A stretch of DNA of 64,000 nt, taken from the IMG/VR virus record IMGVR_UViG_3300035698_028676, positions 1,643 to 65,642 of that record, one strand, 5' to 3'. Below the pieces are notes generated by a model, which was given only the letters and a program-made list of their open reading frames with translations, did no database searches and had not been told where the DNA came from. Shown here one piece after another: positions 24,674 to 63,040 of the stretch. The translations under genes and the position numbers were made by a program. The first letter of the stretch is position 1; each line of letters opens with the position of its first letter. The DNA is from a virus (lineage: Duplodnaviria > Caudoviricetes).

Positions 24674-24680
24674 AAAATAT

Positions 24681-25562: not shown

Positions 25563-25581
25563 ATAGAAGGAGGAATAAAAT

Positions 25582-26846: not shown

Positions 26847-26867
26847 TAGTATCGGAAGGTTTATATA
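26834..26867 (+). promoter_or_regulatory. Class A promoter copy 7 (upstream of the aglB unit)
   Basis: TGCTAC-TAA-GTAGTA-GTATCGGAAGG-TTTATATA; contains upstream TAG. Confidence 0.82.
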
Positions 26868-26925
26868 CTCATACCCTATAGAGAGAGTATGGTAAACTTT
26901 ATATTATTAGAATGGAGGTGTTTAA

Positions 26926-27258: not shown

Positions 27259-27305
27259 ACCTTAACGAATTTTTATTTTTTTATTTTTAAATTAAAACAA
27301 ACAAT

Positions 27306-34855: not shown

Positions 34856-35386
34856 TTAAACACTCCAAATACCTTCTCTTTTACCTACTGCGTAAAATAA
34901 TCCAATTCCAATTCCCATCAATGCTATCGCAAAGAATCCAGGAACCAAATTTATAATAGACCTATTCCATCCTTCAGTAAGGTAGTCTTCCTCACAGTAT
35001 TGATAAGTCGCAGTTGTAGTATTATATCCAGTGTCATTAACATTATCACTGTTATTAAATACTATCCCTCCCGTAGAGGCATTAAAAGTATAGTCAACAG
35101 CAGTCCATGTTACTGAGCCATTGTGTAAAATAAGTCCAGCGATAGGACATCCAGTAACTCTCCAAGTTGTTGGCACATTAGCTACATAGAATGTAGATCC
35201 TGGTATAATTTCCCCTTTACCATCTGCAGTTAGATTCCTAGCTGATTCATAACTTATATTCTCTCCAGAGATATTAACAGTATTAGTTAATGCGTTACCA
35301 GAAGTAGCGATTACTCCTAATAGAGAAATACCAATAATTAATGCGACAAAAGCGCTAACAAGTAAGCTTACATTTTCGTTTTCCAT
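34856..35386 (-). CDS. Two-hydrophobic-helix glycoprotein, candidate spindle-virus-type capsid protein
   Basis: N helix FVALIIGISLLGVIA, sequon-rich middle, C helix IINLVPGFFAIAL; SD GAAAGGGGGT. Confidence 0.6.
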   Translation of the reverse strand: MENENVSLLVSAFVALIIGISLLGVIATSGNALTNTVNISGENISYESARNLTADGKGEIIPGSTFYVANVPTTWRVTGCPIAGLILHNGSVTWTAVDYTFNASTGGIVFNNSDNVNDTGYNTTTATYQYCEEDYLTEGWNRSIINLVPGFFAIALMGIGIGLFYAVGKREGIWSV

Positions 35387-42912: not shown

Positions 42913-43438
42913 TTAATAGTAACTCTGATAACTGAGACTGATTCATTGTATCATTATAAAATTTAATTGTATCTATACTTCCCTCAAAAAATCCTGATTC
43001 ATTAATACCAAAATACCATCCAGTAGCATTCTTCTTAAATGGATTTATAGTTAAGTTGCCTACAGTGTTATTCCCTTCATAAATTAAATCAGATGAGTTA
43101 GTTATCATTATCCAATCACTACCTGAGGTGTTTGCCCAAAATACAACCGATACATAATCATAATCTGGGATAAATAGATAATCATCTATACCATCAAAGT
43201 CTAACCATGTACTATTTTTAGTTGTAACTACTGTTGATTTTATTCCATCACCTATTGGAGATAAAACTGTATTAGAACTAGTTGTTACTAAAAATGAATT
43301 TGTATCAGAATACTCATTCTCTGCCCTTGAGTTATCATACACATCTGGGATAATTCTAAATAATAATATAAATAATATTAACGCTATCATTGATACTATT
43401 ATATAAAGAACTGCGTTGCCTTTTTTGTTTATTCTCAT
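42902..43438 (-). CDS. Pilin/capsid-like N-terminal helix plus incomplete LamG domain
   Basis: MRINKKG|N class III-like signal; WLDFDGIDDY...FEGSIDTIKFYN..SQLSELL. Confidence 0.75.
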   Translation of the reverse strand: MRINKKGNAVLYIIVSMIALILFILLFRIIPDVYDNSRAENEYSDTNSFLVTTSSNTVLSPIGDGIKSTVVTTKNSTWLDFDGIDDYLFIPDYDYVSVVFWANTSGSDWIMITNSSDLIYEGNNTVGNLTINPFKKNATGWYFGINESGFFEGSIDTIKFYNDTMNQSQLSELLLNGR

Positions 43439-43747: not shown

Positions 43748-44169
43748 TAATCTGCATTCCTCCAGAATTTTAGCACAACATAAAGATATGATACCACCAG
43801 TGGAGCCGCAAGTATCAGCGCGATATATGAATTAGATTGTCCTAAAACTTCCCATTGACTATACCTAGTATATAATTCAGCAAAAGATATACCGAAACTA
43901 AAGAAAACTCCAGTTATACCGGCAAATATTAAGAAGTCAGATTTAGTCCAAAATGAACCTACAACTATCCCCACAACAGAGCTTAAGGCTAATGCATCTG
44001 TAATCAAATCCATTAGAGATAAACTCCCCCAATCTTGTGGATTTGTAATCATTGTCCAAAGACTAGACCCAGGTGGACTAGCTCCTACAAATATAACTAT
44101 AGACAAATTAATAGCAACTATAAATAGTAACATTGGTAATAATTTTCCCATTTTATGTTTCCCTCGCAA
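43747..44169 (-). CDS. Polytopic membrane protein
   Basis: Four hydrophobic helices. Confidence 0.7.
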   Translation of the reverse strand: MRGKHKMGKLLPMLLFIVAINLSIVIFVGASPPGSSLWTMITNPQDWGSLSLMDLITDALALSSVVGIVVGSFWTKSDFLIFAGITGVFFSFGISFAELYTRYSQWEVLGQSNSYIALILAAPLVVSYLYVVLKFWRNAD

Positions 44170-47100
44170 ATTTATTTAGTATATAACCAGCCGCGAATAA
44201 AGAAGTTATTAACGCAACAACATATTGATCCATCCAGGCATTTGTTCCTGTATAACTAATTCTTAAAAATCCACCATATGATGCAAAGATTATTATGAAA
44301 GTCATAAACCCTATTGCTCCGCCTGCTGTAGAAAAGTCCCATCCTGTACTATAACTTATATATCCCATAACTATAGAAAGCATAAGAAAGAAGAAAACAA
44401 TTCTAGAAAACTCTTGTCTATTGCTATCATTACCGAATTCATTCAACTCTCTCGCATATTTGAAGAATGAAACTAATGTTCCTCTGTTTGGGATATTTGT
44501 AGTCATAACACTCCAATATGCATCTGCATCAAGAATTATATATCCTTCTCCCATATCTACATAGTAAATAGCCCTTATACTTCTATTAGTACCAACAGGA
44601 ATAGATAAAGATAAATTACCACCTTTAGAATCACACCCGATAGTAGAACCTAATGATACTGTATTATTATTGACTAGTTCCATCTTACACGAAACAATAT
44701 TACTTAAATTTGCAGTAATGTTAAATAAGAATGTTTGTGTAGTATTAGGTAAAATAATCTTACCAAGGTCTGGATAGACTGTCCAGAATAATCCTTCAGT
44801 GCTCGAGTTATAAGTTGCAGCTGAAGCTCCAGAGCCCATTACAACGGTATATGTAGAAGATGATGGTCTAACTGTAACAGTGACAGTTGAATAACCAGAC
44901 TTAGTAAATGTTAATTCATGGTCATAATCCGGATTTAACCATCCAGTAAAACCTCCAGCTGAATCTGTAACACCTTGTTCAACCAATGTCCATACACCTG
45001 CAAATTCTCTTTTAACGACTACCTCTACTCCTTCTATCCCATTTCCAACCGTATCCTGTACTTGATATACAGAATAAGTACCATCTGCCGATGCCAACAT
45101 ATAAAGAGTTGGTGTTGAAGTTGTATTAGTTAAGTCTCCAGATGTTGACCACCTTCTTTGTGGATACCCTGTATCTGAATATTGTAACTCTAACGAACTT
45201 GTTATAGTTTTATCTGACGGTAAAAAACAAAAACCATAGGATTCATTAGCATCAGTAGTTGAATATAATAGTGTCTTATTGATAGTAGCATCACCTGAAG
45301 ATAAATAGTAAGTCCACGTTGATGTATCAATTGAAGCATTAGTTGCTATAGTTGTTTCTTCATCTTCAAATGTAAAGTTTATATAAGGAGCAGTTAATGT
45401 TGTGTTACATAGGCCTAAGGCTATTCTTCCTGTAGACTGATTTATTTGAGGAGTGTCTATGTCTTCAGCCCCATAAGATATTGTCCAAAAAAATGTATTA
45501 TTAATTGCAGTAGCTGTAGATATAGCCGGAACAATTATGTCCCTACTGAATACCATCTCAGAATTATTTCCAGTTTTAGTTGTATCATAATATATACCAC
45601 CGGTAGGATATGTCCCACCGTAATATAGGCTGGCAGTTATAGATTGACTTCCATTTGCAGTTAAATTTATTCTGAATCCTTCTCGTGCAGTTTCATATGT
45701 TGTTAAGTTATATTTTTCTGAATTACCAAATATTTTATATGTCCAGCTACGAGTAAAGTTGGCTTCATTTGCTGCGCTGTCATTCGCATAAAATGTTACG
45801 TTTTTTTGATCAGTTAAAATAAATGATGCATTTAAGTCAGCACACGTTACTGTTGTATTTGTGTTGTTATAATTATACCAGCAACTTTCCAAACTGGTAT
45901 CTGAAGATGTCCAGTTCAATGATATATTTTGTCCTGTATATGCATAATCAAAAGACGTTGTAGGATAAGTTATATTTATTATAGGAGTATTTGTATCTAA
46001 ATATACTGTTCTATTCTCTGTCGCAAATCCACAATCCTCATCAGAATCACAAGCTTGGCAATTCCAATTAGTTGTTCCACTAATTGTTTGTGTAAATGAA
46101 TTTGTATAATTCATTTGTAAAGTATTATAGTTTAATTCATATGTTTTGAATGTAGATGCAAATCCAGTAAATGAGCCACTATGACTATATGAAACTACTG
46201 TTTTTATCATTAATCCTTCAACATATTTATCTAAGACTACACTTCTGTTTACAAGAAGAGATGGGACAGCAGTATTATTTGTTGCTTCAACAGCCCATTC
46301 TGTTCCATTATAAGATTCTAATGTTATAACAATTGAACTTGTATCCATACTTCCAAGTCCCCAAGCAAATTGAGATTTATAATTTACAGTTCCAACTTTT
46401 CTGATACCAAATATTTGTCCTAATTCATTATCATGATTGTCAGTAGTACCTGAACTCCAAATTAATTTAGCAGCATAAGTATCATAATCTTCATCAAAAG
46501 CATTAGAAGTATTTACATTGCTATCTGGATTATATAATGTTTTTGATATACTTTGTGTATCTCTAATCCCCCATGTTCCAGTGCTATCATCGAATAAACT
46601 TATATTGGTTAATTCTGCGCCTCCAGTAATATTTGCTGAACAATTAAAAGTACTCTCAAGAGTATGTAATGTATAATTATCAGAAGGATTAATCAAAATA
46701 ACTTCTCCATCATCACCCAAAGAGATATTTCCCCACGTCGCCCATTCATTCAGAGTTTCACCATTAGTTTTAATAACCCAATCAACAGTTCTAGATGGTT
46801 TCTTTTCTGCATTTAATTTAACCTTGTAGTTACCAGCAGGCATCTCTGTTCCTAGGGAATAAGTTTCTCCGTCTGCTTCGTTACCTTGTAACGTGGAATC
46901 ATCAATAGATGATACATAAAATTGATAACTTCTAACGTCCTGCTTAATCTGAGACCCATCATCTTTAATGGTATAGAAATCTACATCATCAATTAGAACT
47001 GAATCTTCGGATAAATAAATTTGCATAGTAGAAGAACAATCTATCCCACAAACATCATCGTGTTGTGTTATTGCCCCACGGAATAATGTCTTACCCCAAC

Positions 47101-47311
47101 CAAACATATTCTTAATCTCAATAGGCTTGTAAGTTTCCCAAATAGGATTGTATTCTATGTTCTTATTACCTATAGAAAAAGATTCTCCGCTATTTATATT
47201 TTTAGAATTCTGAGAGTTATCTATATTCATAGCTGAAGCTATCGGTACAGCTGCAGCTATAATAAACAACATTAATACAATTAAGAAAGATAAAGACTTT
47301 ATATTTGCCAT
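44153..47311 (-). CDS. 1052-aa secreted glycoprotein with C-terminal TM anchor
   Basis: Signal peptide, C..DCS...EWATWG module, Ig-like domains, carboxypeptidase-regulatory-like domain, three C-terminal TMs. Confidence 0.85.
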   Translation of the reverse strand: MANIKSLSFLIVLMLFIIAAAVPIASAMNIDNSQNSKNINSGESFSIGNKNIEYNPIWETYKPIEIKNMFGWGKTLFRGAITQHDDVCGIDCSSTMQIYLSEDSVLIDDVDFYTIKDDGSQIKQDVRSYQFYVSSIDDSTLQGNEADGETYSLGTEMPAGNYKVKLNAEKKPSRTVDWVIKTNGETLNEWATWGNISLGDDGEVILINPSDNYTLHTLESTFNCSANITGGAELTNISLFDDSTGTWGIRDTQSISKTLYNPDSNVNTSNAFDEDYDTYAAKLIWSSGTTDNHDNELGQIFGIRKVGTVNYKSQFAWGLGSMDTSSIVITLESYNGTEWAVEATNNTAVPSLLVNRSVVLDKYVEGLMIKTVVSYSHSGSFTGFASTFKTYELNYNTLQMNYTNSFTQTISGTTNWNCQACDSDEDCGFATENRTVYLDTNTPIINITYPTTSFDYAYTGQNISLNWTSSDTSLESCWYNYNNTNTTVTCADLNASFILTDQKNVTFYANDSAANEANFTRSWTYKIFGNSEKYNLTTYETAREGFRINLTANGSQSITASLYYGGTYPTGGIYYDTTKTGNNSEMVFSRDIIVPAISTATAINNTFFWTISYGAEDIDTPQINQSTGRIALGLCNTTLTAPYINFTFEDEETTIATNASIDTSTWTYYLSSGDATINKTLLYSTTDANESYGFCFLPSDKTITSSLELQYSDTGYPQRRWSTSGDLTNTTSTPTLYMLASADGTYSVYQVQDTVGNGIEGVEVVVKREFAGVWTLVEQGVTDSAGGFTGWLNPDYDHELTFTKSGYSTVTVTVRPSSSTYTVVMGSGASAATYNSSTEGLFWTVYPDLGKIILPNTTQTFLFNITANLSNIVSCKMELVNNNTVSLGSTIGCDSKGGNLSLSIPVGTNRSIRAIYYVDMGEGYIILDADAYWSVMTTNIPNRGTLVSFFKYARELNEFGNDSNRQEFSRIVFFFLMLSIVMGYISYSTGWDFSTAGGAIGFMTFIIIFASYGGFLRISYTGTNAWMDQYVVALITSLFAAGYILNKFARET

Positions 47312-48125: not shown

Positions 48126-49133
48126 ATGAATCTATTAGGTAAAGAAATAAATTGGAATAATCCTGCCGAGGTCAAGGAATATGAAAGAAAACGTAGGGAG
48201 GTTAATGTAGAACAAATAAAAGCTACAAAAAAAGCATACTACAAAAAAAATAAAGATAGATTGGTTATTAAAAATAAAGATAATTATGAAAAAAATAAAG
48301 GTAAGATAGCAATTCAAAGCAAAAAGTATAGAAAAGAGAATAAAGAGAAAATAAAAATTCAGAGGAGAAAATATAGAGAAAAGAATAAAGAGAAAATAAA
48401 AATTGACAAAAAAGAATATTACAAAAAGAATAAAGATAAGATAGCTATTAAGGAGAAAGAACATTATAAAAATAATAAAGATGAGATTAATGCTTCTAGT
48501 ATAAAGTATTATAAAGAGAACAAAAATCATATAAGAATTAAAAGTAAGGAATATTACAAAAAGAATAAAGATAAGGTATTAATTCAGTGCAAAAAATATC
48601 GAAAAAATAATAAAGAAATAGTAGCTATTAAGGAGAAAGAGTATTATGAAAAAAATAAAGATAAGGTATTAATTCAGTGCAAAAAATATCAAAAAAAGAA
48701 TAAAGATAAGATAGCAATTCAAAGTAAAAAATATTATAAAAACAGTAAAAAAAATATATGTATAGTATGTGGGGAACCGCACGCCTTAGATAAATTTTGC
48801 TCAAAAAAATGCATGGGAATTTATTGGACTGGAAAAGGACATCCGTTATGGAAAGGCGGACCAGCTCCTTATCCTACAGCATGGACAAGGAAATTTAAGA
48901 AATCAATTAGAGATAGAGATAATAATAAGTGTATGAGATGTGATAAGCCAAGAGAAGTCTTAGGACAGGCTTTATGTGTTCATCATATTGATGCCATTAA
49001 AGAAAATACATATCCAGAGAACTGCATCTCTCTTTGTCGTGCCTGCCATGGATTAACTGTAGGTAGAGAACACCTTTTTACTGAAGGTTTTAGAAAGATG
49101 CTATCTAAAAGATTTGGATATAAATATACCTAA
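48126..49133 (+). CDS. HNH endonuclease with Lys/Tyr-rich helical repeats
   Basis: ~15-aa KxYYxKNKDKI repeats; CxxC..FCSxxC; IRDRD..C..C, VHHID...NCISLC..CH. Confidence 0.85.
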   Translation: MNLLGKEINWNNPAEVKEYERKRREVNVEQIKATKKAYYKKNKDRLVIKNKDNYEKNKGKIAIQSKKYRKENKEKIKIQRRKYREKNKEKIKIDKKEYYKKNKDKIAIKEKEHYKNNKDEINASSIKYYKENKNHIRIKSKEYYKKNKDKVLIQCKKYRKNNKEIVAIKEKEYYEKNKDKVLIQCKKYQKKNKDKIAIQSKKYYKNSKKNICIVCGEPHALDKFCSKKCMGIYWTGKGHPLWKGGPAPYPTAWTRKFKKSIRDRDNNKCMRCDKPREVLGQALCVHHIDAIKENTYPENCISLCRACHGLTVGREHLFTEGFRKMLSKRFGYKYT

Positions 49134-49631: not shown

Positions 49632-49874
49632 TTACCTCCTTTCTCCAAAGTGCATTATCTTTGATAATTTTCCATTGGATTTACTTTTTATAGTCCAATG
49701 GTGGTCGGATTTTGTCCGGCCCGACTTTGTCGTGACGGCTCTGCCGACTCCATTGGATTTAATCTCCTCAGTTTTAACCTTTAAGCTTACCTTTTTAATC
49801 CCTCTCCAATCTGTCCATTCTTTCGTAGCAAAACATAACGCCCTCTGTTTGCTTTTATATTTTGAACAAGGCAT
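49632..49874 (-). CDS. Small basic protein
   Basis: SD GGAGGG sets start at MPCSKYKSKQRALCFAT. Confidence 0.6.
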   Translation of the reverse strand: MPCSKYKSKQRALCFATKEWTDWRGIKKVSLKVKTEEIKSNGVGRAVTTKSGRTKSDHHWTIKSKSNGKLSKIMHFGERR

Positions 49875-49973
49875 TTTAAATATCCCTCCTAAAAAATCCA
49901 AAGCACGAGCCCGTAGGCCCGCACTTTTTCCTCTGGACAAGTGGCTGAGGACCACTAAGAATAGAGTGTAATA

Positions 49974-52900
49974 TCATATCCATTTTACCCTACCAACTTT
50001 TTTTGTTTGTGACTTTCTTTTCTTAATACCTTTAGCTGTGATAGCAGCGAACTCTCCCTTTGTAGATATTCTAGCTTTTCTTTTCTGGATGAATGTTGAT
50101 GGCTTTTTGACTTCTTTACCTTTTACTATTCTGCCCCTGTATTCTTTCTTAAGTTCAGCTCTAGATATTGGGGCCAGATTTAGTGTACCTTCAATTCCTT
50201 TCCCCTTCTTTAATCTAAATGAAACTGATGCATCGGATTTTGTTTCTTTTCTACCTAAAGCTAAAGCTTCCCCTTCTGATAATGCGAATGGAGTTACATC
50301 TTCCCACTTCCCTCCTCTTTTAACTTCAACTTCATAACCTCGTTTAACTTTGGTCTTTGATTTAGTTTTGGGGATTCTAACTTTTACTTTCCCTAAATCA
50401 GGTATAATTATAACTGGAGGTACTGGTTTTGGTGGAGATGGCGACGGGCTTGGCGATGGTGAAGGCGAAGGACTAGGGCTAGGACTAGGACTTGGGCTTG
50501 GACTTGGACTAGGTGATGGACTAGGAGAAGGACTAGGACTAGGAGAAGGACTAGTAGTTATGCTAGGACTAGGTGAAGGACTAGGTGAAGGACTAGGTGA
50601 AGGTGAAGGACTAGGGCTTGGACTAGTAGTTATACTAGGACTAGGCGAAGGGCTAGGAGAAGGTCTAGGTCTAGGGGAAGGAGAAGGTGATGGCTTAAAC
50701 TTAATTACAGGAGAAGGACTAGATACTGAAGATATTTTAATTAGTGAAGAAGGACTAGCCGCAGTTGAAGGCCTAGTGCTAGGAGAGCTTAAAGTAGATG
50801 TAGTAATTTTCGCCTCTGAAGGAATAGTTATTGGACTAACAACACGTCCAGTAAATGAAGTTTTTACAGGAGTCTTCAATGAGCTAGTAACATCAATTTT
50901 TATTCCAGATAAATATGCAGCCCTACTAGTATCAAGTTCTCCAAACAATGTCCCTACATCTTCCGCAGCCCAATCTAATTTTCTATATTTTTCAAATAAT
51001 TTATCTGCCCTTACCCCTTCAGCCTTAGTCCCAACTGTAGGATTAAAAACTTTGCTTTCTGCTAAACTTTTACCTATGGCGTAAGTATCAACAACATCTT
51101 TAGAACGATGCATAGGTGGCTCTATTATCTTCTTTCCAGTTAAAGGATCTTCCCACCAAGTGGCAGAAGCTCCAGCCTTTCTTATTAACTGTTCATATTC
51201 TGTTTGAGAAGCAACTCCTTCAACCTTTGTAGTAGGTCTATATTCCTCAAATCCATATCTGAAACCTTTAGATAATTCTACTAAAGAAGTAGGATCATCA
51301 TGATATTTTAATTCTATGCTCTTCTCTCCTTTAACATAAACTCCCATACCTTGTGCATCATCTATTACTTCAGCAGTACTAGAACCTTTCCTTCTTAATT
51401 CCTCTGCAGCCTTTTCTCCCCATTTCCCAGCAGCAGTCTTAGAATTAAATTCTATTTCAATATCTCCAGGGGTTCTTTTAAACTCTAATTTTCTTTGAGC
51501 AATATCTGAGAAAGAACCATAAACTCTTTCATATGCTCCTTTATCTTTTTTCAAAAGTTTAAGTACAACCTTAATTTCATCTTTATCTAATGATTTAGTC
51601 TCTGTAGGAAACTTTTCTAAAAAACTACTTTTCTGCTCTCTTAGTAAATTTAATACATCTTTAGTTATTTCTATCTTTTTTATACCTTGAGTACTGACCC
51701 CTAAAGCCTTTAGCACAGGTTTTTGAGTTAATACTTCTGCTTCTAATGCAGTCCCTGGATAACTAGCAATATTTTTCTTAGACCATTCTGGGAATGCCAT
51801 TCTTTTTACACCTGGTAATTTTTCTACTCCTGGAGTTCCAATTGCAACCCCTCTTTTAGTCCATCCTATTAAAGGTTTTACTACCCCCTCTTCTGGCTCA
51901 AGATAAAACCCCCTATAAAGAGATTCAGGTTCGGTAAATCTCGCAGCCTCAATCATTTCTACATCTTTTACCGCTTTAATAGTTTTTGGGAGTAAAGGAG
52001 ACTCTGTACGAATAATTGCCTTTTTATCTGTAAGAATTTGTTGATAATCCCTGACCCTTATGCCATCTACTTCTTTTATAACATCTAATCTTTGTCCTCT
52101 GTATCCTATATCAACAACATCTGTTTTAGTGGCTGTATCGACAATTTTAACCTGTCTACCAGTATTATCTATTTTTAAAACATTAGGATCTTTACCCTCG
52201 GCCTTATAGTTCTTTCTAGCTATTCTTAAAGCTTTCTTCGCAAACTCCCCAACTTTTTCTTTTACTAAAAAATAAACATCGGCATCACCAGGATTTCTAA
52301 AACTTCCTTTTGGAAGTTGCATTTTGACTGCCGCAGTACCTCCTAAATATCCTCCTTCCTTAGTAGCTGCCTTCGCCACATCTAATTGTAATTTATTTAA
52401 TGTATCTAATGCCCTTGGCACTTTAACCTCAACATTACCATACTTCAAAAACTTTCCTGCTCCAGAGGCACCAACCCCCATAAGAACAAAATCTTTTGCG
52501 GCAGCTCCAGTCATTTTTCCCGCTTGAAAATAATCTTCTGCATCTCTTACATTTTTATATGTCTCTGCTCCATAAGTAACACCAAATCCTACTCCTGCTC
52601 CTAAAGTTCCAACATCTGCAGCAACACCTGCAACTTGAGCACCTTTTGTTCCAGCAACGAGCCCACCTACTGTTCTAAATCCAAGACCTGCAGCCTTTAC
52701 TCCAACCCCTAACCCATAACCTGCACCAATAAGAGCGACTTGTTTTAATGGTTTTTCTATAACATCCTCTGCAATCCCTATACCAACTCCAGTTATAAAA
52801 CCACCACCTTTAGCGACTACCTCAGGAACTCCTTTGTCAAGAAACGACGCTGTTGTCTCTTCAGATTTTATGGCTGCTTCCTCAAATGTAGTTGGTAAAT

Positions 52901-55460
52901 CTAGGCCTGTTTGTGTTTCCACTACAGTCATACCAGTTCCAAATCCCTTTGCAAATGGATCTGTTATCCCTCCCCTAAGCCCTTCGCTTATATCACCAAA
53001 AAAGCCTGGTATCTCTTTTGCTGTTTTAACTATCTTATCAGCTGCAACTGCAGGTCCAAGATAAGCTGCTTCAGTATAAGGTTTAGCTGCATCTTGAATC
53101 CTTTCATTTGCTAAAAGTGGGGCTAATGCCGTATCTATTACAATAGGAGCTACTGTTTCTTTTATTACTGGAGCTACGACTTCAGTTATCTTATCAGCTG
53201 CAACTGTAGTCCCAAGATAAGCTGCTTCGACATAAGGTTTAACTGCATCTTTAATTATACTTCCAGTTAACATAGAGCCCAAAGCTGTTTCTTTTATCAA
53301 TGGGGTTACGACTTCAGCTATCTTATCGGCTGCAATTGAAGGTCCAAAAAAAGCTGCTTCAGTATAAGGTTTAGCTGCATCTTTAATTACACTTCCAGTT
53401 AACATAGAACCTAAAGCTGTCTCTTCTATTACTGGAGCTACTACTTTACTTATCTTATCAGCTGCAACTGAAGGTCCAAGATATGCTGCTTCAACATAGG
53501 GTTTAGCTGCATCTTTAATTACTCTCCCAGTTAACATAGAACCTAAAGCTGTCTCTTTTATAGCTGAAGCTGTTACTTCAGTTATCTTATCAGCTGCAAG
53601 TGAAGGCCCAATGAAAGCTGTTTCAGTATAAGGTTTAGCTGAATCTTTAATTATTTTTGCAACTGAAAGTGAACTAATAGCCGTTCCTTTTATAGCTGGG
53701 ACTATTGTTTCCTTAATAACTACTCCAGCTTCTTTAATTAATGGAACCGCTTTCTCTTCAACCCTTTTTCCTAACGATAATATAGATGTTGCTTTTTTTT
53801 CTACTGCACCTGCTACTGTTGTTCCAATATAATCTAAAGCATCTGCTCTAGCTTCTCCAACACCTGCTGTAAATTCTTTGACTGATGGGATTACCTTTTC
53901 TTTAATAACTACTCCAGTTCCTTTGATTACTGGAGCTACTTTTTCCTTAACATCTTTTCCTAAAGATAAAACAGATGTTGCTTTTTCTTCAACTGCATCT
54001 ACTACTGTAGTCCCAATGTAGCTCAATGTATCTGATCTAACTTTTCCAAACTCTTTGATTACTGGAATTACCTTTTCTTTAATAACCGGAGCTACAACTT
54101 CAGTTATTTTATCAGCCACAATTGAAGGTCCAAGATATGCTGTTCTAGTATAAGGATTAGCTGCTTCCCTGACTGCACTTGCAGTAGAAATAGATCCTAT
54201 AGCGGTATCTCTTATAACTGGAGCTACTATTTTCGCAACTCTTCCACCCAAAGATATACTTTCTGCCGTATCCGCAACTTTTGTTCCAATATAGTCTAGG
54301 GTATCTGCCCTTGCTTCTCTTATTGCTGGAATTATCTTTTCCTTATTAACCCATGTCTCTGCGGCTACAACTGACAAAGCACCAGTAGCTGCACCTAATC
54401 CTGCACCTAATGTTTCACCACTACCTTTTAAAACATCTTTAATAACCTTTGCCCCTATTTCATTATACGCCTGTGGATTATAAAGTTTCCTATTTGTAAA
54501 TGGAGTATAGACATCTCTTCCAGTTCCTGGAGTTGGTCTTCCTCCTTCGAACATCTCTCCATAAGTTTCTCTTGGTGTATTTCCGGTAAGCCTCTCCCAT
54601 TGAGCAGCAGGAAAATTTGTTATCTTTTGTATTATAGTTTTTTTAGGAGCAGCTTCAACTGACCATTGTGGGGCAGAAGGTAAAGGTGTTTTTTTAAATA
54701 ATTCTGGATGAGATAATGCAAAGGCCGCCTGTCTATCTTGTGACATCTCTATTCCCTGTCTACCTACTGCTACAGGAATCTGAGTAGCCGTAGCAAGATC
54801 TGGAGAAGCTAAAGATTGCAATTCACCAGTAAGAACATCTTTATATGCAACCTGTGGCGCATCAAATTGTTGTCCATATCTTTCTTGTAAGCCCTCTAGA
54901 GACATGCTCGCCTGATCTGGCCCACCTGAAACACCAACAAGTTGTCCTTTATCATAAATAAGATTAAACCCAGCCTCATTTAAATTTGATTTAAATTCGG
55001 ACAAATCGCCCCGAGCCAACTTCTGTTCTGTTCTCATTTGAGAATCTCTTGGCGACCAATCTGTTGTTGTTCCATATGGTGTAGAATATTCGTAGCCTAA
55101 TACTTGCGTTACGTAGCCCTTCCCTAACTTTCCCATAATCGCCCTTGGAGCTATCCCTTTCTCTTTGGCATATTGCATTATCCCGGCAGGAGTTTTTTTA
55201 AATTCTTCAATTCTTTGTCCATAAGAAGCAACTTGTTCTTCATCTTGCGCTGCTTGTTGTGATTGTCCTGCTAACCTTTCTCTTTCAGACCTAACTGCCT
55301 GTTTCTTGGGAACTCCAGCTATTCCCTTTATAGCCCTAAGTGCCCTTTGTGTTCTTGTCTCAGGCAAAGCCGCCTGTCTAGATGCTATACCAGATTGAGC
55401 TCTAGCTATACCTTCTCTACTAGCTGCTACTTGAGCTTGTGCTTCCTGAATACTAACCAT
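49974..55460 (-). CDS. 1828-aa multidomain protein: amphipathic repeats, hydrophobic helices, two nucleotidyltransferase-like domains, (SP)n linker, basic tail
   Basis: GPSxAADKI repeats; YLGGTAA...RNPGDAD and VYGSFS...RTPGDIE motifs; long Ser-Pro run. Confidence 0.8.
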   Translation of the reverse strand: MVSIQEAQAQVAASREGIARAQSGIASRQAALPETRTQRALRAIKGIAGVPKKQAVRSERERLAGQSQQAAQDEEQVASYGQRIEEFKKTPAGIMQYAKEKGIAPRAIMGKLGKGYVTQVLGYEYSTPYGTTTDWSPRDSQMRTEQKLARGDLSEFKSNLNEAGFNLIYDKGQLVGVSGGPDQASMSLEGLQERYGQQFDAPQVAYKDVLTGELQSLASPDLATATQIPVAVGRQGIEMSQDRQAAFALSHPELFKKTPLPSAPQWSVEAAPKKTIIQKITNFPAAQWERLTGNTPRETYGEMFEGGRPTPGTGRDVYTPFTNRKLYNPQAYNEIGAKVIKDVLKGSGETLGAGLGAATGALSVVAAETWVNKEKIIPAIREARADTLDYIGTKVADTAESISLGGRVAKIVAPVIRDTAIGSISTASAVREAANPYTRTAYLGPSIVADKITEVVAPVIKEKVIPVIKEFGKVRSDTLSYIGTTVVDAVEEKATSVLSLGKDVKEKVAPVIKGTGVVIKEKVIPSVKEFTAGVGEARADALDYIGTTVAGAVEKKATSILSLGKRVEEKAVPLIKEAGVVIKETIVPAIKGTAISSLSVAKIIKDSAKPYTETAFIGPSLAADKITEVTASAIKETALGSMLTGRVIKDAAKPYVEAAYLGPSVAADKISKVVAPVIEETALGSMLTGSVIKDAAKPYTEAAFFGPSIAADKIAEVVTPLIKETALGSMLTGSIIKDAVKPYVEAAYLGTTVAADKITEVVAPVIKETVAPIVIDTALAPLLANERIQDAAKPYTEAAYLGPAVAADKIVKTAKEIPGFFGDISEGLRGGITDPFAKGFGTGMTVVETQTGLDLPTTFEEAAIKSEETTASFLDKGVPEVVAKGGGFITGVGIGIAEDVIEKPLKQVALIGAGYGLGVGVKAAGLGFRTVGGLVAGTKGAQVAGVAADVGTLGAGVGFGVTYGAETYKNVRDAEDYFQAGKMTGAAAKDFVLMGVGASGAGKFLKYGNVEVKVPRALDTLNKLQLDVAKAATKEGGYLGGTAAVKMQLPKGSFRNPGDADVYFLVKEKVGEFAKKALRIARKNYKAEGKDPNVLKIDNTGRQVKIVDTATKTDVVDIGYRGQRLDVIKEVDGIRVRDYQQILTDKKAIIRTESPLLPKTIKAVKDVEMIEAARFTEPESLYRGFYLEPEEGVVKPLIGWTKRGVAIGTPGVEKLPGVKRMAFPEWSKKNIASYPGTALEAEVLTQKPVLKALGVSTQGIKKIEITKDVLNLLREQKSSFLEKFPTETKSLDKDEIKVVLKLLKKDKGAYERVYGSFSDIAQRKLEFKRTPGDIEIEFNSKTAAGKWGEKAAEELRRKGSSTAEVIDDAQGMGVYVKGEKSIELKYHDDPTSLVELSKGFRYGFEEYRPTTKVEGVASQTEYEQLIRKAGASATWWEDPLTGKKIIEPPMHRSKDVVDTYAIGKSLAESKVFNPTVGTKAEGVRADKLFEKYRKLDWAAEDVGTLFGELDTSRAAYLSGIKIDVTSSLKTPVKTSFTGRVVSPITIPSEAKITTSTLSSPSTRPSTAASPSSLIKISSVSSPSPVIKFKPSPSPSPRPRPSPSPSPSPSITTSPSPSPSPSPSPSPSPSPSPSITTSPSPSPSPSPSPSPSPSPSPSPSPSPSPSPSPSPSPSPSPPKPVPPVIIIPDLGKVKVRIPKTKSKTKVKRGYEVEVKRGGKWEDVTPFALSEGEALALGRKETKSDASVSFRLKKGKGIEGTLNLAPISRAELKKEYRGRIVKGKEVKKPSTFIQKRKARISTKGEFAAITAKGIKKRKSQTKKVGRVKWI
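50430..50700 (-). repeat. Ser-Pro dipeptide repeat tract
   Basis: PSPSPS... with varied codons, interrupted twice by ITT. Confidence 0.9.
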
Positions 55461-55479: not shown

Positions 55480-55860
55480 CTAGTAACTTATTATCCCCCT
55501 TCTTACTTTTCTACGCATTTGTACATTTGGCGTTAGATTAATTTTAGGTGCAACTGGTGCTACTTTTACTGATACTGTACTAAATGTAATTCCATCTTTA
55601 ACTATTGGCTCTTGTGGAATACTATTATATGTATTCAAATCATCAAGATATTTATTGATAGTTGTAAGATTCTTTTTTGCCATAACTCCACCTTTCCTTA
55701 CATCTTTCATATAGCTTCTATCTTCTTGTCTAGCAACTCTATTCTGCATTCCCCCATGTAATTGTGCTTTAGAGTATTTAAGTGGATGGTCTAATTGTGC
55801 AAAATAATTTCTCCTTTCAATTATTTGTAATTTCAAGTTTTCTGCTTGTGTTTTATCCAT
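55480..55860 (-). CDS. Basic hypothetical protein
   Basis: SD GGAGGT; TAATG coupling. Confidence 0.7.
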   Translation of the reverse strand: MDKTQAENLKLQIIERRNYFAQLDHPLKYSKAQLHGGMQNRVARQEDRSYMKDVRKGGVMAKKNLTTINKYLDDLNTYNSIPQEPIVKDGITFSTVSVKVAPVAPKINLTPNVQMRRKVRRGIISY

Positions 55861-56219: not shown

Positions 56220-56242
56220 AGTCATAAAAAATAAAAAAATAT

Positions 56243-56267
56243 AAAAGGTGGGTTAATCCCACCCCTT
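56243..56267 (-). terminator. Terminator-like hairpin after S-layer gene
   Basis: GGTGGG-ATTAA-CCCACC followed by T-tracts on minus strand. Confidence 0.6.
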
Positions 56268-56294
56268 ATATAATAAGAAATCGTTTCTGTTTAT

Positions 56295-58475
56295 CTAAAT
56301 AATAACCTTCTCGCCATCAGCGATATTGATATTATTACTTAATAGATATTGGATACCTCTTGTAGTATCTTCTGCGTTATAACCTGCAACTACTGTTGCA
56401 AATTGACCCTCACCCATATCGAATGTCTGAATCAATACTTTCCCGGCTACAACTCCTGTAATCGCTGTGAATTCTGCTCCACATGCTTTACCGCCTAGTA
56501 AGCTAGCTGATACTGTATTAATACAACTTCCTCCGACAACAATGATATTCTTACCTGAAGCTGCTGCTAAATTAGCATCAGTTATCTTCGCGATACCTAA
56601 CTCTGCAGCTGTTGGTTTAACAACGGTTGCGTTGGACGCAACTGTATCTTCCTCACTACCTAGTACTGAAACCTGGGCGTATAATTGTTCACTAGGAACT
56701 TTGAATACAACCTTATCGTCATCAGCATTATTCTGTGGGCTCTCTACAATAGTACCATAATAATCCATTACATCATTATCATATTTTCCAATAGATTTAC
56801 CATCAACTTTCACATCACTAGATGCTGCATCCTCTTCTATAGTCCCAAGATATGTATTATTGCCTCCTAGAGAAATTTCAATATTACTATTTTTATAACT
56901 CCCTGTTATAGATAATGTATCTCCACCTGCGGAAATTCCAATTACCATTTCAGTTTCATCTGCAATTAAATCTGCAATATCAATGTAAGAGTTTTTTACA
57001 GTCACCAATGCGGCTTCTGCTGCTGTTACATCTGCTTCTGCTGTCACTACTGCTGCTTGTGTAATAGAATTATTCGTCACAAGTACTGTGGCCTCCGCAT
57101 TTGTTAATGCAAGTTCTGCTGCTGTTACATTTGCTTCTGCTGTTGTTACTGCTGATATATCAATATTCGCGTATCGTACCGGCTTTCCAGTAGAATAATC
57201 TTCCGCTAAATCCATATAATAAACTTGTAAAAGTCCGTTACCAGAATTCTGCAGATATAATGTATCTGTCTCTATATCATCTTTTAGTAAAAAAGAATCT
57301 TCGTTATTACCCTTAATAACCATAACATCTACATCACTAATTCTTGCTCCATTTCCGCTAGAACTTCCATTCTCATACATATCAATATTATCGAAGTAAA
57401 CTTCGTAATCATGATAATCTACATCAGTTAAGCTATCAAAACTCACTGTTGCAAAATCGTTTGGGAAAATGTATTCTCCTCCTTCATAAACAACATCATC
57501 TTCTTCGTCAACTTGTCTTAAGTCATACCTAACACCAATCCATCCATCTTCACTTCCAGGATTAGATATACTCCAAACCCACTCTGGGTCATCGTTATCT
57601 TGTCCTATAAATGCATCTCCATCGGAATATTCCTCAGAAATATCTCCTCCAGCATAGATTTCAACTTTGCTAGTTCTAGTATCAGAATCTGTATAGTAAA
57701 CGTCGTCTACTTTAACCTCTACTCCATTAATAGTCTTTTTCTTACCTTCTTTGATAAGAACTCCATTAATAAATGCACTGTCATCATAAATACTATCTAT
57801 TGTTAATGAAACTCCATTAACTGTAGTAGTAGCCCCTTCTGCAAGAAAAATCTTTTCTGCGTTAGTTACTGTAATAGAATTACTATCTATATCTTCAATA
57901 AGATATTCATCTCCAAGAATTGATACCTCTAAAGACTCTGCATCTGTATCACCTAGTTCTCTAACATTTTTAACAAAGACATCTTCCTCAAATATAAGCT
58001 TATATTCTAGGCCTTTATCATTTGTCAAAACTACATCTTCAAAATCGTTATTGTCTAAAGTAGTCTGAATTTTAAGATCACCGATTGCAAGCTCTTCATG
58101 AACATTATAGCTATCTGTGTTGTCTCCATCGTTCCACTCTATTTTACCATCAAATAAAGAAGGAATTTTGTTATCAGTTAACGTAGATTTAATCTTCCCA
58201 CTCAAACCTAATCCAAGCTCTGCTTCATCCTCAGTGACTCCTGCAGAAAAAATCCTTTCAAGTTCTTCTGGGATAATAATTGTATCTGCCAAACTATTTA
58301 CTAAACTATCCGCTGCTGTAGAATCTGTCGCTGCTGCGCTAACACCATAGACAACTGCTACATTAGCTTCATTGTTATTAGTAAATGGAATTGGATATAC
58401 TCCTGCTGAAACTAACATCATACTTATTAAAAATAGACTAAGAAATCCTGTCGTCTTTTTAAATGTTTTTTTCAT
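56295..58475 (-). CDS. Archaeal S-layer protein
   Basis: Signal peptide, YPIPF..VAVVYG..A..D..AA N-domain, very acidic, C-terminal NIIVVGGSCIN...VVAGYNAEDT. Confidence 0.85.
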   Translation of the reverse strand: MKKTFKKTTGFLSLFLISMMLVSAGVYPIPFTNNNEANVAVVYGVSAAATDSTAADSLVNSLADTIIIPEELERIFSAGVTEDEAELGLGLSGKIKSTLTDNKIPSLFDGKIEWNDGDNTDSYNVHEELAIGDLKIQTTLDNNDFEDVVLTNDKGLEYKLIFEEDVFVKNVRELGDTDAESLEVSILGDEYLIEDIDSNSITVTNAEKIFLAEGATTTVNGVSLTIDSIYDDSAFINGVLIKEGKKKTINGVEVKVDDVYYTDSDTRTSKVEIYAGGDISEEYSDGDAFIGQDNDDPEWVWSISNPGSEDGWIGVRYDLRQVDEEDDVVYEGGEYIFPNDFATVSFDSLTDVDYHDYEVYFDNIDMYENGSSSGNGARISDVDVMVIKGNNEDSFLLKDDIETDTLYLQNSGNGLLQVYYMDLAEDYSTGKPVRYANIDISAVTTAEANVTAAELALTNAEATVLVTNNSITQAAVVTAEADVTAAEAALVTVKNSYIDIADLIADETEMVIGISAGGDTLSITGSYKNSNIEISLGGNNTYLGTIEEDAASSDVKVDGKSIGKYDNDVMDYYGTIVESPQNNADDDKVVFKVPSEQLYAQVSVLGSEEDTVASNATVVKPTAAELGIAKITDANLAAASGKNIIVVGGSCINTVSASLLGGKACGAEFTAITGVVAGKVLIQTFDMGEGQFATVVAGYNAEDTTRGIQYLLSNNINIADGEKVII

Positions 58476-61403: not shown

Positions 61404-63040
61404 GTTCCACTTATCCCCTTTTTTAATTGTCCGATTATTGTATCGTTATCATTATATGCTCCTGCCATATATGTGTTTGTTGAGTTTGGTACACCAACGC
61501 TCCATAACCCATTTGAATCTGTAATGTTTTGGTAATATTCTGATATATTATATTGGTTCCATACTGTTACGTTTGCTGCTACTATCGCGTTGTCTGCTTC
61601 GTCTAATACGTATCCTGAGAATTGGCAGTTTACTATTGGTACATAAGTCAAATATCTAATAATAACAACACCAGAACCACCATTTCCTCCATCATACTTA
61701 ACTCCATTAGCACTAGCACCTCCTCCTCCGCCTCCAAGTCCATTAGTTCCATCAGTTCCATCACCATTATTACCACCAGCACCTCCTCCTCCAGAACCAC
61801 CAGCTCCACCAAGTTTACTTCTATAATCATCAGCTCCAGCTCCGCCACCACCAGCATAAGTAACAGCAGTACCAGTTATTGAGTTTGAAACTCCATCACC
61901 ACCATCTCCACCATTACCAGATGCTCCATCACCACCTACTTCACTAGCACCTCCTCCTCCACCACCACCAAAATTATCCCCATTACCGCCACCAGCATAA
62001 CCTTGACCAGCAGTTCCAGCACCACCAGCACCATTATAATAACCACCTCCACCGCTTCCACCAGTAGTTCCACCGCCTGGAGCTAAATAAACACCACCAC
62101 CAACAGCAGTTTTAGTATCAAATACAGAATCATCTCCCTCTTGAACATTAGTTGCGTCAGTAGATCCACTACCACCATCACCAACAGTAATACTATAATT
62201 TTGTTCAGTTACTGTGAATACTGCATCATATAATAGCCCACCAGCTCCACCACCTCCACCTACTGAATAACCACCACCGCCACCTCCAGCGACAACTAAA
62301 ACACTAACATTTTGAGAATCTCCTGTCCAACTAAATGTTCCACTAGATGTAAAAGTGGCAACAGTATAATCTCCGTCATAAGTAATAGTACCACCAGTAC
62401 CATTCCACCAAGCCCATTCTGAAAGTGTTTCTCCATTAGATAAAATTTGGAAATCAATATTATCAGAATACCCTTTTTCTCCAGTTAATTTCCATTCATA
62501 ATTTCCAGCCTTTAATTCTTCATAATTATATTCTTCCCAAACTTGTCTTATTCTTGTTTCAGCTTTATATTTAATAACTTCACTATAACATTCTTTTACA
62601 CCTTTATTTTCAATACAAACTTCTTCATATTCACCTGGAACTTCTTCTTTATAACTTTCATCAACCTTAATCCAATATTGAGAATTTGGTATATTAATCT
62701 TTTTACCAGAGCTATCTACAAATTCTATACCATCAAATAGTTTCCCATTCTTAACAAGAACAACCCTACCTTCTGCTGAACATTCAGTTGTACATTGTTC
62801 TGTGTTTTTTACCAAAGAATACTCAATTATTTTTTCATTATTATCATCCTTTATCCCTATAATACCATATTTATTATTAAAATTTTCTTTTAGAAAATCT
62901 GGAGTATCTTTAGTTATTACCTTTTTGTGTGTCTTGTCGTCAGCACTAACAGTTTGTCCAACACTAACAAAAAAGCCAATAGCTAATAGTACAACTCCTA
63001 TTACTAACAATGTCGACAGAAATATTTTTTTAGCTTCCAC
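61397..63040 (-). CDS. Secreted protein with glycine-rich fibre/adhesin domain
   Basis: C...CS..EWAWW module; LVVAGGGGGG...GGSGVVIIRY; C-terminal SGYV.D...ANVTV..TDSNG. Confidence 0.82.
   Translation of the reverse strand: MEAKKIFLSTLLVIGVVLLAIGFFVSVGQTVSADDKTHKKVITKDTPDFLKENFNNKYGIIGIKDDNNEKIIEYSLVKNTEQCTTECSAEGRVVLVKNGKLFDGIEFVDSSGKKINIPNSQYWIKVDESYKEEVPGEYEEVCIENKGVKECYSEVIKYKAETRIRQVWEEYNYEELKAGNYEWKLTGEKGYSDNIDFQILSNGETLSEWAWWNGTGGTITYDGDYTVATFTSSGTFSWTGDSQNVSVLVVAGGGGGGYSVGGGGGAGGLLYDAVFTVTEQNYSITVGDGGSGSTDATNVQEGDDSVFDTKTAVGGGVYLAPGGGTTGGSGGGGYYNGAGGAGTAGQGYAGGGNGDNFGGGGGGGASEVGGDGASGNGGDGGDGVSNSITGTAVTYAGGGGAGADDYRSKLGGAGGSGGGGAGGNNGDGTDGTNGLGGGGGGASANGVKYDGGNGGSGVVIIRYLTYVPIVNCQFSGYVLDEADNAIVAANVTVWNQYNISEYYQNITDSNGLWSVGVPNSTNTYMAGAYNDNDTIIGQLKKGISGTC

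Follow-up and report, generated by a model that had tools for sequence, protein, structure and literature searches.

Does the giant protein encoded in this window (the whole stretch of 64,000 nucleotides that was analysed) carry nucleotidyltransferase (NTase) domains, and what might such domains do in a virus-like element? The first-pass annotation had described an 1828-residue protein with two NTase-like domains and had read it as a polyvalent effector or ejection protein delivered by the virion. The reading frame at 49974–55460 on the minus strand is open throughout, and the gene is genuine and conserved. Its product, P0001, contains no N-x-S/T sequon and no cysteine, and 1.3% of its residues are asparagine. 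As annotated, it has no signal peptide, because no hydrophobic window occurs before residue 586, and the protein is non-secreted in character. Apart from the putative N-terminal coiled coil, of which only an Ala/Gln/Arg/Glu-rich composition was seen, all of the sequence features listed in the annotation are present. The domain boundaries and the conserved architecture were established as follows.

49974–55460, minus strand: giant open reading frame P0001, 1828 residues, no internal stop
54471–55460, minus strand: N-terminal region (residues 1–330), Ala/Gln/Arg/Glu-rich, with a start that is not hydrophobic
52881–54470, minus strand: repeat region (residues 331–860), with 44-residue amphipathic repeats and repeats of about 63 residues
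52413–52880, minus strand: Gly/Ala-rich, weakly hydrophobic stretch (residues 861–1016), from composition and Kyte-Doolittle hydropathy
51936–52412, minus strand: D1, NTase-like module (residues 1017–1175), with G1040-G1041, R1055, D1059-x-D1061, D1117 and K1146
50826–51926, minus strand: D2 (residues 1179–1545), an N-terminal extension and an NTase-like core with G1315-S1316, R1329, D1333-I-E1335, E1383, K1428 and K1454-D1455-x-x-D1458
50406–50825, minus strand: Ser/Pro/Thr-rich linker (residues 1546–1685), with (SP)n runs within residues 1591–1676
49977–50405, minus strand: basic C-terminal domain (residues 1686–1828), kept in 14 of 94 homologues

Both motif stretches of the annotated NTase-like domains are present. 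The motif GGTAAVKMQLPKGSFRNPGDADV begins at residue 1040 in D1 and the motif GSFSDIAQRKLEFKRTPGDIEI at residue 1315 in D2, and both places agree with the nucleotide positions of the first-pass annotation. The cores of the two modules are homologous to each other, with an hhalign value of 96.7% and an E-value of 3.3e-10 over 106 columns and with the motifs in register; with small alignments the same comparison gave only 41.7% and an E-value of 2.7e-4. D2 was also recovered by jackhmmer seeded with D1. Judged from these alignments, D1 and D2 are paralogous modules.

A search with residues 980–1570 yielded 94 metagenomic representatives at E≤1e-3, 48 at E≤1e-10 and 17 at E≤1e-30, all of them without a name and none matching Pfam, at 25–40% identity. 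One homologue comes from a 0.1–0.22 µm ocean fraction. D2 is found in nearly all of these relatives, and D1 is optional. D1, D2 and the basic tail are the only conserved modules of P0001, and across the family conservation centres on the enzymatic-looking core and not on the helical part. Of the 78 homologues with 600 residues or more, a Ser/Pro/Thr-rich window occurs in 66, a basic tail in 61 and the two together in 51.

The putative catalytic positions are the best conserved. In the motif I–II region of D2, conservation is 74/75 for G1315, 70/75 for S1316, 63/75 for R1329 and 76/76 for D1333, and position 1335 is acidic in all 76 members, being Glu in P0001 and in 24 of the 76. Further along, E1383 is acidic in 53 of 66, K1428 is kept in 56 of 66, K1454 in 62 of 63, D1455 in 57 of 63 and D1458 in 60 of 63. 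D1 shows the same pattern in G1041 (22/22), R1055 (22/23), D1059 (23/23), D1061 (22/23), D1117 (acidic in 23/25) and K1146 (26/26). D1117 and E1383, each with hydrophobic flanks, correspond to the third carboxylate (h[DE]h) that the Pol-beta superfamily has on a later strand, and were aligned to each other by hhalign. A conserved lysine occurs at the distance expected for motif III, in the context DKKAIIR in D1 and EQLIRKA in D2, as against KLxAaxxR. Motif IV, +DxxD, is present in D2 (K1454-D1455-x-x-D1458) and degenerate in D1, in which the second Asp is absent and the second position is Leu in 15 of 27 sequences.

These most conserved residues are the motif set published for DUF1814/AbiEii. 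According to Dy et al. (2014), motifs I–IV of DUF1814 are needed for GTP binding and toxicity, as judged by mutation, and the Arg four residues ahead of the first Asp is specific to DUF1814; in the same work, a D-to-E change in the second carboxylate of AbiEii abolished toxicity, which, given the Glu of P0001 in D2, counts against the NTase reading, although 24 of the 76 members share this Glu. A regular expression for motifs I–II matched 10 of 10 real AbiEii proteins and 57 of 95 family proteins, 14 of these twice. It matched twice in P0001 and in none of 310 background ORFs (45,806 residues), and in shuffled sequence it gave 8 sites in 4.9 million residues, or 1.6 per million. P0001 thus resembles AbiEii/MenT proteins (DUF1814, PF08843) in the long spacer between motifs I and II, in the Arg four residues before D-h-D, and in the later Lys and the K-D-x-x-D of D2, which follow in the same order at similar distances. 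It differs from them in that its motif III lysine lacks the KLxAaxxR surroundings, in that it has no match to the PF08843 HMM and in that profile-profile comparison remains at chance. Furthermore, AbiEii stands alone as a protein of some 270 residues, whereas the module of P0001 is duplicated within 1828 residues and accompanied by a spacer and a basic tail.

Searches for a named family gave no link. Pfam had no match to P0001 (E≤1) or to 34 family members (E≤0.1), PHROGs, PADLOC and NCBIfam had none to the giant protein, and the HMMs of PF08843, PF19244, PF01909 and PF18765 had none anywhere in the record at E≤10. In hhalign comparisons with ten genuine plasmid AbiEii proteins, D1 gave 0.2% and an E-value of 0.32, with 16 of 60 column shuffles scoring equally high, and D2 gave 0.7% and an E-value of 0.086 in the wrong register, a score reached by 1 of 60 column shuffles. 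A phmmer search of the PDB with P0001 returned 14 matches, all within residues 1590–1744 and of low complexity or at chance level, and PDB sequence-profile searches (profiles A1, A4 and A5) returned nothing useful. A word-index protein search gave one match with residues 980–1570, and the D1 profile found only P0037, with no bridge to a named family. Against 50,697 phage records, tblastn gave no match with whole P0001 and, with D1, five chance-level matches (E-values of 6–10). On sequence comparison, the link between the P0001 family and AbiEii stops at the motif level. The annotated tandem of NTase-like domains holds in the mutual homology of the two modules and in the invariance of the Pol-beta/DUF1814 catalytic positions, and does not extend to an HMM or profile link with any of the four Pfam families above. 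The family is best described as a new protein family, probably of NTases.

In the ESM Atlas, clusters of viral proteins of about 157 residues made up 28 of the 30 named matches for D2 and 27 of the 30 for D1, with scores of 0.92–0.94. Between 11 and 22% of the members of these clusters carry PF19244, a poly(A) polymerase catalytic domain; the matches share 131–143 of 256 features, which is a range fitting chance or distant relatives. The small viral proteins are of the size of D1 and lie closest to both modules in the language model, but the PF19244 HMM itself is without a match in the record, and the neighbours are taken as a lead only towards poly(A)-polymerase-like proteins.

The N-terminal 1000 residues or so are lineage-specific and consist of amphipathic repeats and Gly/Ala-rich helices. 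Similarity to residues 1–330 was sought in the 94 homologues and found in none, and a word-index protein search with residues 1–1000 gave no relatives. The amphipathic repeats reported in the first-pass annotation are evident at both the DNA and the protein level. Tandem Repeats Finder (TRF) detected a 132-nucleotide unit at 53153–53653, repeated 3.8 times with 84% matches, and the corresponding 44-residue repeats, punctuated by proline, follow the pattern PY..A..GP..AADKI in six copies; the six copies of PY[TV][ER].A..G start at residues 436, 610, 654, 698, 742 and 794. A second repeat of about 63 residues, D[AT]L.YIGT, occurs three times, at residues 386, 477 and 540. The Gly/Ala richness of the following stretch was also correctly noted, reaching 48% in the 60-residue window at residues 906–965; the term membrane-type in that annotation is an interpretation. 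The Kyte-Doolittle maxima in a 19-residue window are 1.48, at residues 908–926 and 943–961, and do not reach the value of about 1.6 commonly required for a transmembrane segment, which favours glycine-zipper-like helices over classical transmembrane ones.

At the other end, the annotated Ser-Pro tract consists of four (SP)n runs (residues 1591–1596, 1601–1608, 1613–1632 and 1637–1676), and Ser, Pro and Thr account for 98% of the 60 residues from residue 1611. The tail was rightly called basic, with 27 Lys/Arg versus 5 Asp/Glu in the final 80 residues.

The giant gene appears to form one transcription unit with the gene just upstream, from which it is separated by a 19-nucleotide gap, and terminator-like hairpins lie on both sides.

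56239–56271, minus strand: terminator-like hairpin of 14 pairs and a T run, after a 726-residue gene; upstream edge of the unit
55480–55860, minus strand: gene of 126 residues upstream of the giant ORF
49900–49927, minus strand: terminator-like hairpin of 12 pairs and a T run, 47 nucleotides past the stop of the giant ORF

A downstream GTG-initiated ORF of 107 residues was rejected as a real gene, with the second hairpin lying inside it. The 126-residue protein has no match in PHROGs, Pfam or NCBIfam and no relative in homologous loci, and no AbiEi-type antitoxin gene was found upstream in the same three databases, in which respect the locus differs from AbiEii/MenT systems. A classical AbiE toxin–antitoxin pair was accordingly rejected, because there is no antitoxin. 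The product of the 726-residue gene has no tblastn match in 50,697 phage records. In homologous loci L002–L010, the neighbouring genes belong to no PHROG or Pfam family, except for a beta-helix protein in L008.

The neighbours of the giant ORF encode sequon-rich proteins with signal peptides or transmembrane segments, in which N-x-S/T sites are roughly two- to threefold more numerous than expected. These membrane glycoprotein genes lie on the same strand as the giant ORF and adjoin a glycosylation gene set; the plus strand carries an integrase, a tRNA-Val, an STT3/AglB-like oligosaccharyltransferase, PMT_2, glycosyltransferases and sugar epimerases. Homing endonuclease genes of the element comprise two of the HNH and one of the LAGLIDADG type, and one of its proteins matches phrog_2295 at 6.6e-57. 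The record is classed as viral in IMG/VR and is 35% complete. Its host may possibly have been an archaeon.

The explanation that we favour, at about even confidence, is that an uncultivated virus-like element has a conserved gene bearing a predicted Pol-beta-type NTase-like module of the DUF1814/AbiEii motif type twice, as paralogues. D1 would be the minimal form and D2 the form with an N-terminal extension, both placed ahead of the Ser/Pro spacer and the basic C-terminal domain. In D2, Mg2+ and NTP would be held by the G-S turn and the carboxylates D1333, E1335 and E1383, and the nucleotide may be bound by R1329, K1428 and K1454-D-x-x-D1458, like their AbiEii counterparts. NMP would then be added to the 3'-OH of an RNA, perhaps tRNA-like by analogy with MenT, and the tail, basic and carried on a flexible spacer, could recruit this RNA. 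The amphipathic and hydrophobic N-terminal part might anchor the enzyme on the cytoplasmic or internal side of a membrane or particle. A more far-reaching version, in which glycosylating and possibly archaeal viruses would possess giant membrane- or particle-tethered RNA NTases that arose by duplication of a toxin module of the AbiEii/MenT type, otherwise a weapon of hosts against phages, and its fusion to a nucleic-acid-binding tail and a membrane-active N-terminus, and that shut down host translation, is speculative and rather improbable.

A less likely possibility, though one to be taken seriously, is that the motifs form no NTase site, and that D1 and D2 adopt a different fold with a structural or binding role in a large protein of the scaffold, matrix or tape-measure-like kind. 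All of the HMM, profile-profile and PDB sequence searches being negative is consistent with this, and great length together with Gly/Ala-rich hydrophobic stretches is typical of tape-measure proteins. However, structural modules rarely keep, at 25–40% identity, an Asp in 76/76 sequences, an acidic residue two positions later in 76/76, G-S in 74/75 and 70/75 and K-D-x-x-D in 57–62 of 63, chance produces the composite motif only 1.6 times per million residues, and tail chaperone or tail tube genes were not found nearby. P0001 is like phage tape-measure and ejection proteins in its length, helical repeats and Gly/Ala-rich hydrophobic stretch, and unlike tape-measure proteins in having an enzymatic-looking core as its conserved part. 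A tape-measure protein was rejected, because no tail genes lie nearby; neither Pfam nor PHROG gave a tape-measure match. Delivery by the virion, which the first-pass annotation had proposed, is unlikely. P0001 would in that case be packaged, ejected through the host envelope by means of its N-terminal part, and would nucleotidylate host RNA or protein at entry. Its gene does lie among membrane and surface protein genes of the same strand, the protein is very long with an amphipathic and hydrophobic N-terminal part, and the lack of sequons and of a signal peptide is as expected of an internal component. Direct support was not found, in that the window, part of a 35%-complete record, yielded no recognisable gene for a capsid, portal, terminase or tail protein, and Pfam and PHROG revealed no effector domain in P0001, whether MuF, portal-linked or of another kind. 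Phage polyvalent virion proteins with enzymatic effectors are known (PMC5512222); Pol-beta NTases are among the domains listed for polyvalent proteins by Iyer et al. (2017; PMC5512222), where the examples with an NTase are ArdC-N fusions from conjugative elements of firmicutes and polyvalent proteins are reported to be rare in archaea. P0001 resembles the proteins described there as a very large mobile-element protein with catalytic modules of a conflict-type family. As the term is used in that paper, polyvalent could not be upheld, however: beyond the two paralogous modules, Pfam and PHROG gave no second kind of effector domain, neither MuF nor ArdC. The possibly archaeal setting is a further difference from the published examples.

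Two further readings, both quite doubtful, concern the nature of the element and the use of the enzyme. Rather than a virus, the element could be a mobile island from an archaeon or an ultra-small episymbiont, with genes for surface glycoproteins and their glycosylation, and the giant protein could be a cellular effector or an RNA-modifying enzyme tethered to a membrane. The integrase, tRNA-Val and glycosylation genes of the plus strand (STT3/AglB-like oligosaccharyltransferase, PMT_2, glycosyltransferases and epimerases), the sequon-rich signal-peptide and transmembrane neighbours and the homologue from the 0.1–0.22 µm ocean fraction are in keeping with such an island. So is the outcome of IMG/VR scans, one of them with P0001 alone as query, which found no relatives. 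The viral classification of the record, the two HNH and one LAGLIDADG genes and the phrog_2295 match argue against it, as does the failure of two narrow patterns to find relatives in 185,579 species genomes, the first DNA pattern fitting only 6 of 95 family proteins. Alternatively, and with equally little expectation on our part, the NTase might serve the element itself instead of acting as a toxin, by repairing the 3' ends of tRNAs that host defences have cleaved or by tailing the element's own RNA or DNA ends. Template-independent RNA polymerases similarly combine a catalytic module with a spacer and a basic tail that binds nucleic acid, the lead from the ESM Atlas is towards viral proteins of the poly(A)-polymerase-like type and not towards toxins, and an antitoxin-like partner was not recognised; against this, the motif II Arg and +DxxD belong to the set described for the toxin family.

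The favoured explanation, that of a duplicated DUF1814-type NTase-like module, would extend the range of this chemistry. To our knowledge, DUF1814-type chemistry has so far come from small toxins of toxin–antitoxin and abortive-infection systems that block tRNAs, and if the modules are active NTases, this would be its first occurrence within a giant protein of a virus-like element. D2, with about 370 residues, would in that case be a defined domain that can be expressed and assayed. The family comprises at least 94 sequence clusters that have neither a name nor a Pfam model. Its setting in this element is also unusual, as oligosaccharyltransferase and sugar-modification genes stand beside heavily sequon-loaded surface proteins, which suggests that envelope or spike proteins of the element are glycosylated by its own enzymes.

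The giant gene (49974–55460, minus strand) is translated without a stop into 1828 residues (P0001) and is compositionally distinct, with a GC content of 0.38 versus 0.29–0.36 elsewhere. Apart from a putative N-terminal coiled coil, all features that the first-pass annotation had read from this protein were reproduced. The amphipathic GPSxAADKI repeats correspond to a 132-nt tandem unit (3.8 copies, 53153–53653) around which six 44-aa PY..A..GP..AADKI repeats are built; a longer repeat, D[AT]L.YIGT, occurs three times. The two motif segments begin at aa 1040 and aa 1315, the long Ser-Pro tract comprises four (SP)n runs (aa 1591–1676), and the tail is basic, K/R making up 27 of its final 80 residues. 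A signal peptide is absent, as had been stated, because the first hydrophobic window does not occur before aa 586. The claimed Gly/Ala-rich hydrophobic helices hold in composition (G+A up to 48%, aa 906–965), but their hydropathy maxima reach only 1.48, below classical transmembrane helices.

Searches with the whole of P0001 returned no Pfam family (E≤1), no PHROG (E≤0.1) and no phage-record match, and its PDB matches all fall within the SP tract. A full HMMER scan with aa 980–1570 recovered 94 representatives at E≤1e-3 (48 at ≤1e-10 and 17 at ≤1e-30), 78 of which are at least 600 aa long. The ten representatives checked are all metagenomic; four are named just "hypothetical protein" or by a sample tag, and six are nameless. 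No relatives were found in IMG/VR or the species genome set. The giant proteins are a new, unnamed family that combines a known-looking catalytic signature with a new architecture. Their two nucleotidyltransferase-like modules are, in P0001 numbering:

aa 1017–1175: D1, found in 21 of the 94 homologues
aa 1179–1569: D2, the core of which is found in 66 of the 94 homologues

Both modules were matched in seven proteins, and they can occur separately. In the homologue P0010 (1287 aa), D1 is inserted within D2 (query order aa 191–455, then 34–197, then 462–591), which marks D1 out as a mobile module. The N-terminal 1016 residues of P0001 are similar to none of the 94 homologues, and a word-index search with the N-terminal region was also matchless. 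The layout C-terminal of D2 is conserved among the long homologues: a 60-aa window in which S+P+T reach 50% or more is present in 66 of the 78, a basic last 80 residues in 61, and both in 51. This S/P/T-rich window lies downstream of D2 in 56 of the 62 homologues with a located D2 end. The P0001 tail (aa 1686–1828) matches 5/94 homologues by phmmer and 14/94 by jackhmmer, and is a conserved domain in its own right.

D1 and D2 are paralogous. Alignments of 21 D1 and 57 D2-core sequences matched by hhalign with 96.7% probability (E 3.3e-10, 106 columns), with the G[GS] turn, the Arg, the D-x-[DE] and a later h-D-h all in register, and jackhmmer seeded with D1 also reached the D2 core of these proteins. 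With two much smaller alignments (A4 and A5), the match reached only 41.7% (E 2.7e-4, motif I–II region).

The motif residues are the most strongly constrained sites of the family. In D2, the motif I–II columns are G1315 (74/75), S1316 (70/75), R1329 (63/75), D1333 (76/76) and position 1335 (acidic in 76/76; D 52, E 24), followed by E1383 (acidic in 53/66), K1428 (56/66), R1452 (61/63), K1454 (62/63), D1455 (57/63) and D1458 (60/63). The corresponding D1 columns are G1041 (22/22), R1055 (22/23), D1059 (23/23), D1061 (22/23), D1117 (acidic in 23/25) and K1146 (26/26). According to the available text of Dy et al. 2014 (PMC3985639), the DUF1814/AbiEii family is defined by four motifs: hG[G/S]-x15-DhD for motifs I–II, with a longer spacer than in other Pol-beta enzymes and an Arg within motif II; a Lys amid hydrophobic residues (III); and a +DxxD pentad (IV). 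The same text reports that mutation of each motif abolishes AbiEii toxicity and that GTP binding requires motifs I, II and IV. D2 displays motifs I, II and IV and a candidate motif III, arranged as in AbiEii, whereas D1 shares motifs I–II, a third acidic position and the Lys, with a degenerate motif IV. The Lys lies at the expected distance in both modules, but its surroundings (D-K-K-A-I-I-R in D1, E-Q-L-I-R-K-A in D2) differ from the KLxAaxxR of AbiEii. The pattern G[GS]-x11-14-R-x3-D-h-[DE]-h matches 10/10 genuine AbiEii proteins (from plasmids) and 57 of 95 family proteins; it occurs twice in 14 of the latter, P0001 among them. It is absent from the remaining 310 ORFs in the window and loci (45,806 residues), and shuffled sequence gave 8 sites in 4.9 million residues, so chance falls far short of explaining the motifs.

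The proposed Pol-beta/AbiEii-type domains are supported by this signature, but not by the HMM and profile-profile searches. Pfam found TPR in two of 34 family members and nothing else, PADLOC and NCBIfam found nothing on the domains, PDB profile searches gave no relevant match, and PF08843, PF19244, PF01909 and PF18765 had no match in the whole record at E≤10, with controls giving a response. Against ten annotated AbiEii proteins, hhalign gave D1 a probability of 0.2% (E 0.32) with motifs I–II in register, 16 of 60 column shuffles scoring equally high, and D2 a probability of 0.7% in a wrong register, equalled by one of 60 shuffles. A weak independent lead to PF19244-type viral proteins came from ESM Atlas, where 28 of 30 named D2 hits and 27 of 30 D1 hits are clusters of ~157-aa viral proteins, with PF19244 (poly(A) polymerase catalytic domain) on 11–22% of members; the scores are 0.92–0.94, and the number of shared features (131–143 of 256) lies in a range fitting distant relatives or chance. 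The family is tied to known nucleotidyltransferases at the motif level and nothing beyond. A non-nucleotidyltransferase fold for D1 and D2, compatible with the silent profile searches and set against the ordered motifs, is considered rather unlikely.

The leading reading, in which we place about even confidence, sees the core modules as Pol-beta-type nucleotidyltransferases with the DUF1814 set of motifs. D2 at least would be enzymatically active, the basic tail, carried by the Ser/Pro spacer, would bind nucleic acid, and the amphipathic and Gly/Ala-rich N-terminal part would act as a tether that keeps the enzyme on the cytoplasmic or internal side. The first-pass annotation, whose observation is confirmed and whose interpretation is supported in part, had proposed a virion-delivered effector or ejection protein. 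No capsid, portal, terminase or tail genes were recognised within the window, and we regard this version as improbable. In the available part of PMC5512222, Pol-beta nucleotidyltransferases among polyvalent proteins are confined to conjugative-element proteins of Firmicutes, and polyvalent proteins are few in archaea; nucleotidyltransferase modules here would therefore be in a new setting. Full-text searches on DUF1814 and virions, and on archaeal viruses with nucleotidyltransferases, N-glycosylation and AglB, listed no description of a comparable protein.

The giant gene and a 126-aa gene form a unit between two hairpins, the downstream one lying inside a short ORF:

56271–56239, minus strand: terminator-like hairpin, upstream edge of the unit
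49927–49900, minus strand: terminator-like hairpin, downstream edge of the unit
49632–49955, minus strand: 107-aa GTG ORF with the downstream hairpin inside

An AbiEi-type antitoxin is not in evidence, because the 126-aa protein has no family match and no counterpart beside the homologues. The 107-aa ORF, containing this hairpin, is probably not a gene, and a 244-aa ORF (50350–51084, plus strand), whose GLGEGL repeats mirror the (SP)n tract in antisense, is an artefact.

The other minus-strand neighbours are signal-peptide or transmembrane proteins rich in N-x-S/T sequons, and three neighbours recur weakly among nine metagenomic loci carrying homologues:

63030–63986, 44153–47311, 37750–42912, 42902–43438 and 34856–35386, minus strand: membrane or secreted proteins, sequons two- to three-fold over expectation
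56295–58475, minus strand: signal-peptide protein, 726 aa
47324–47716, minus strand: small transmembrane protein, matching loci L005 (4078–4344; E 1.7e-6) and L010 (1519–1776)
61397–63040, minus strand: Gly_rich_2 protein, 547 aa (PF21722, 3.6e-23), matching L005
44153–47311, minus strand: secreted protein of ~1100–1200 aa, matching locus L008 (E 4e-4)

Observed versus expected sequons number 30 versus 13.3 in the 318-aa protein, 40 versus 19 in the 1052-aa protein and 78 versus 37 in the 1720-aa protein. The giant protein, although flanked by such proteins, is itself sequon-free (Asn 1.3%, no Cys). The 726-aa protein has no Pfam, PHROG or NCBIfam match; its C-terminus (..IIVVGGSCIN...VVAGYNAEDT..) is reminiscent of the ends of S-layer proteins in archaea. 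The small protein has a K-R-G-Q plus hydrophobic N-terminus, and its counterparts lie directly downstream of giant-gene homologues at two loci; we tentatively read it as a pilin-like protein or one with a class III signal peptide. The Gly_rich_2 protein (phrog_2295, 6.6e-57) is the module's sole strong tie to known phage protein families. A near-identical ~38-nt stretch (TAACGCAACATTTAAATATAAAGAATTACTAGTAATAT) lies upstream of two different minus-strand genes, at 47927 and 37686; a recurring promoter or leader is one possible explanation.

The single source record (65,642 bp; window, bases 1643–65642) is classed as viral and linear in the collection, with a CheckV completeness estimate of 35%. 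The plus strand also carries two radical-SAM genes, an integrase, homing endonucleases and a tRNA-Val:

within 12230–30026, plus strand: STT3/AglB-like oligosaccharyltransferase (Pfam STT3, 27.2 bits, above cut-off) and PMT_2
within 12230–30026, plus strand: glycosyltransferases, sugar epimerases/dehydratases and a heptose kinase/adenylyltransferase-like gene
27306–30026, 16618–18474, 13290–14486, 22700–23518, 25938–26846 and 20686–21981, plus strand: example genes of the glycosylation region
3666–4310, plus strand: short tyrosine-integrase gene
7329–7402, plus strand: tRNA-Val (TAC) gene
48126–49133, plus strand: HNH endonuclease gene, opposite to and interrupting the minus-strand module
8903–9919: second HNH gene
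2178–2876: LAGLIDADG gene

The glycosylation genes look like a self-encoded protein-glycosylation kit, and the tyrosine-integrase and tRNA-Val genes are a hint that the element may integrate. An archaeal host is tentatively suggested, only by the STT3-type enzyme, the sequon load and the A/T-rich boxes before strong Shine-Dalgarno sites. The N-terminal 200 aa of the HNH gene product at 48126–49133 are a Lys-rich repeat (KKYYKKNKDK-like).
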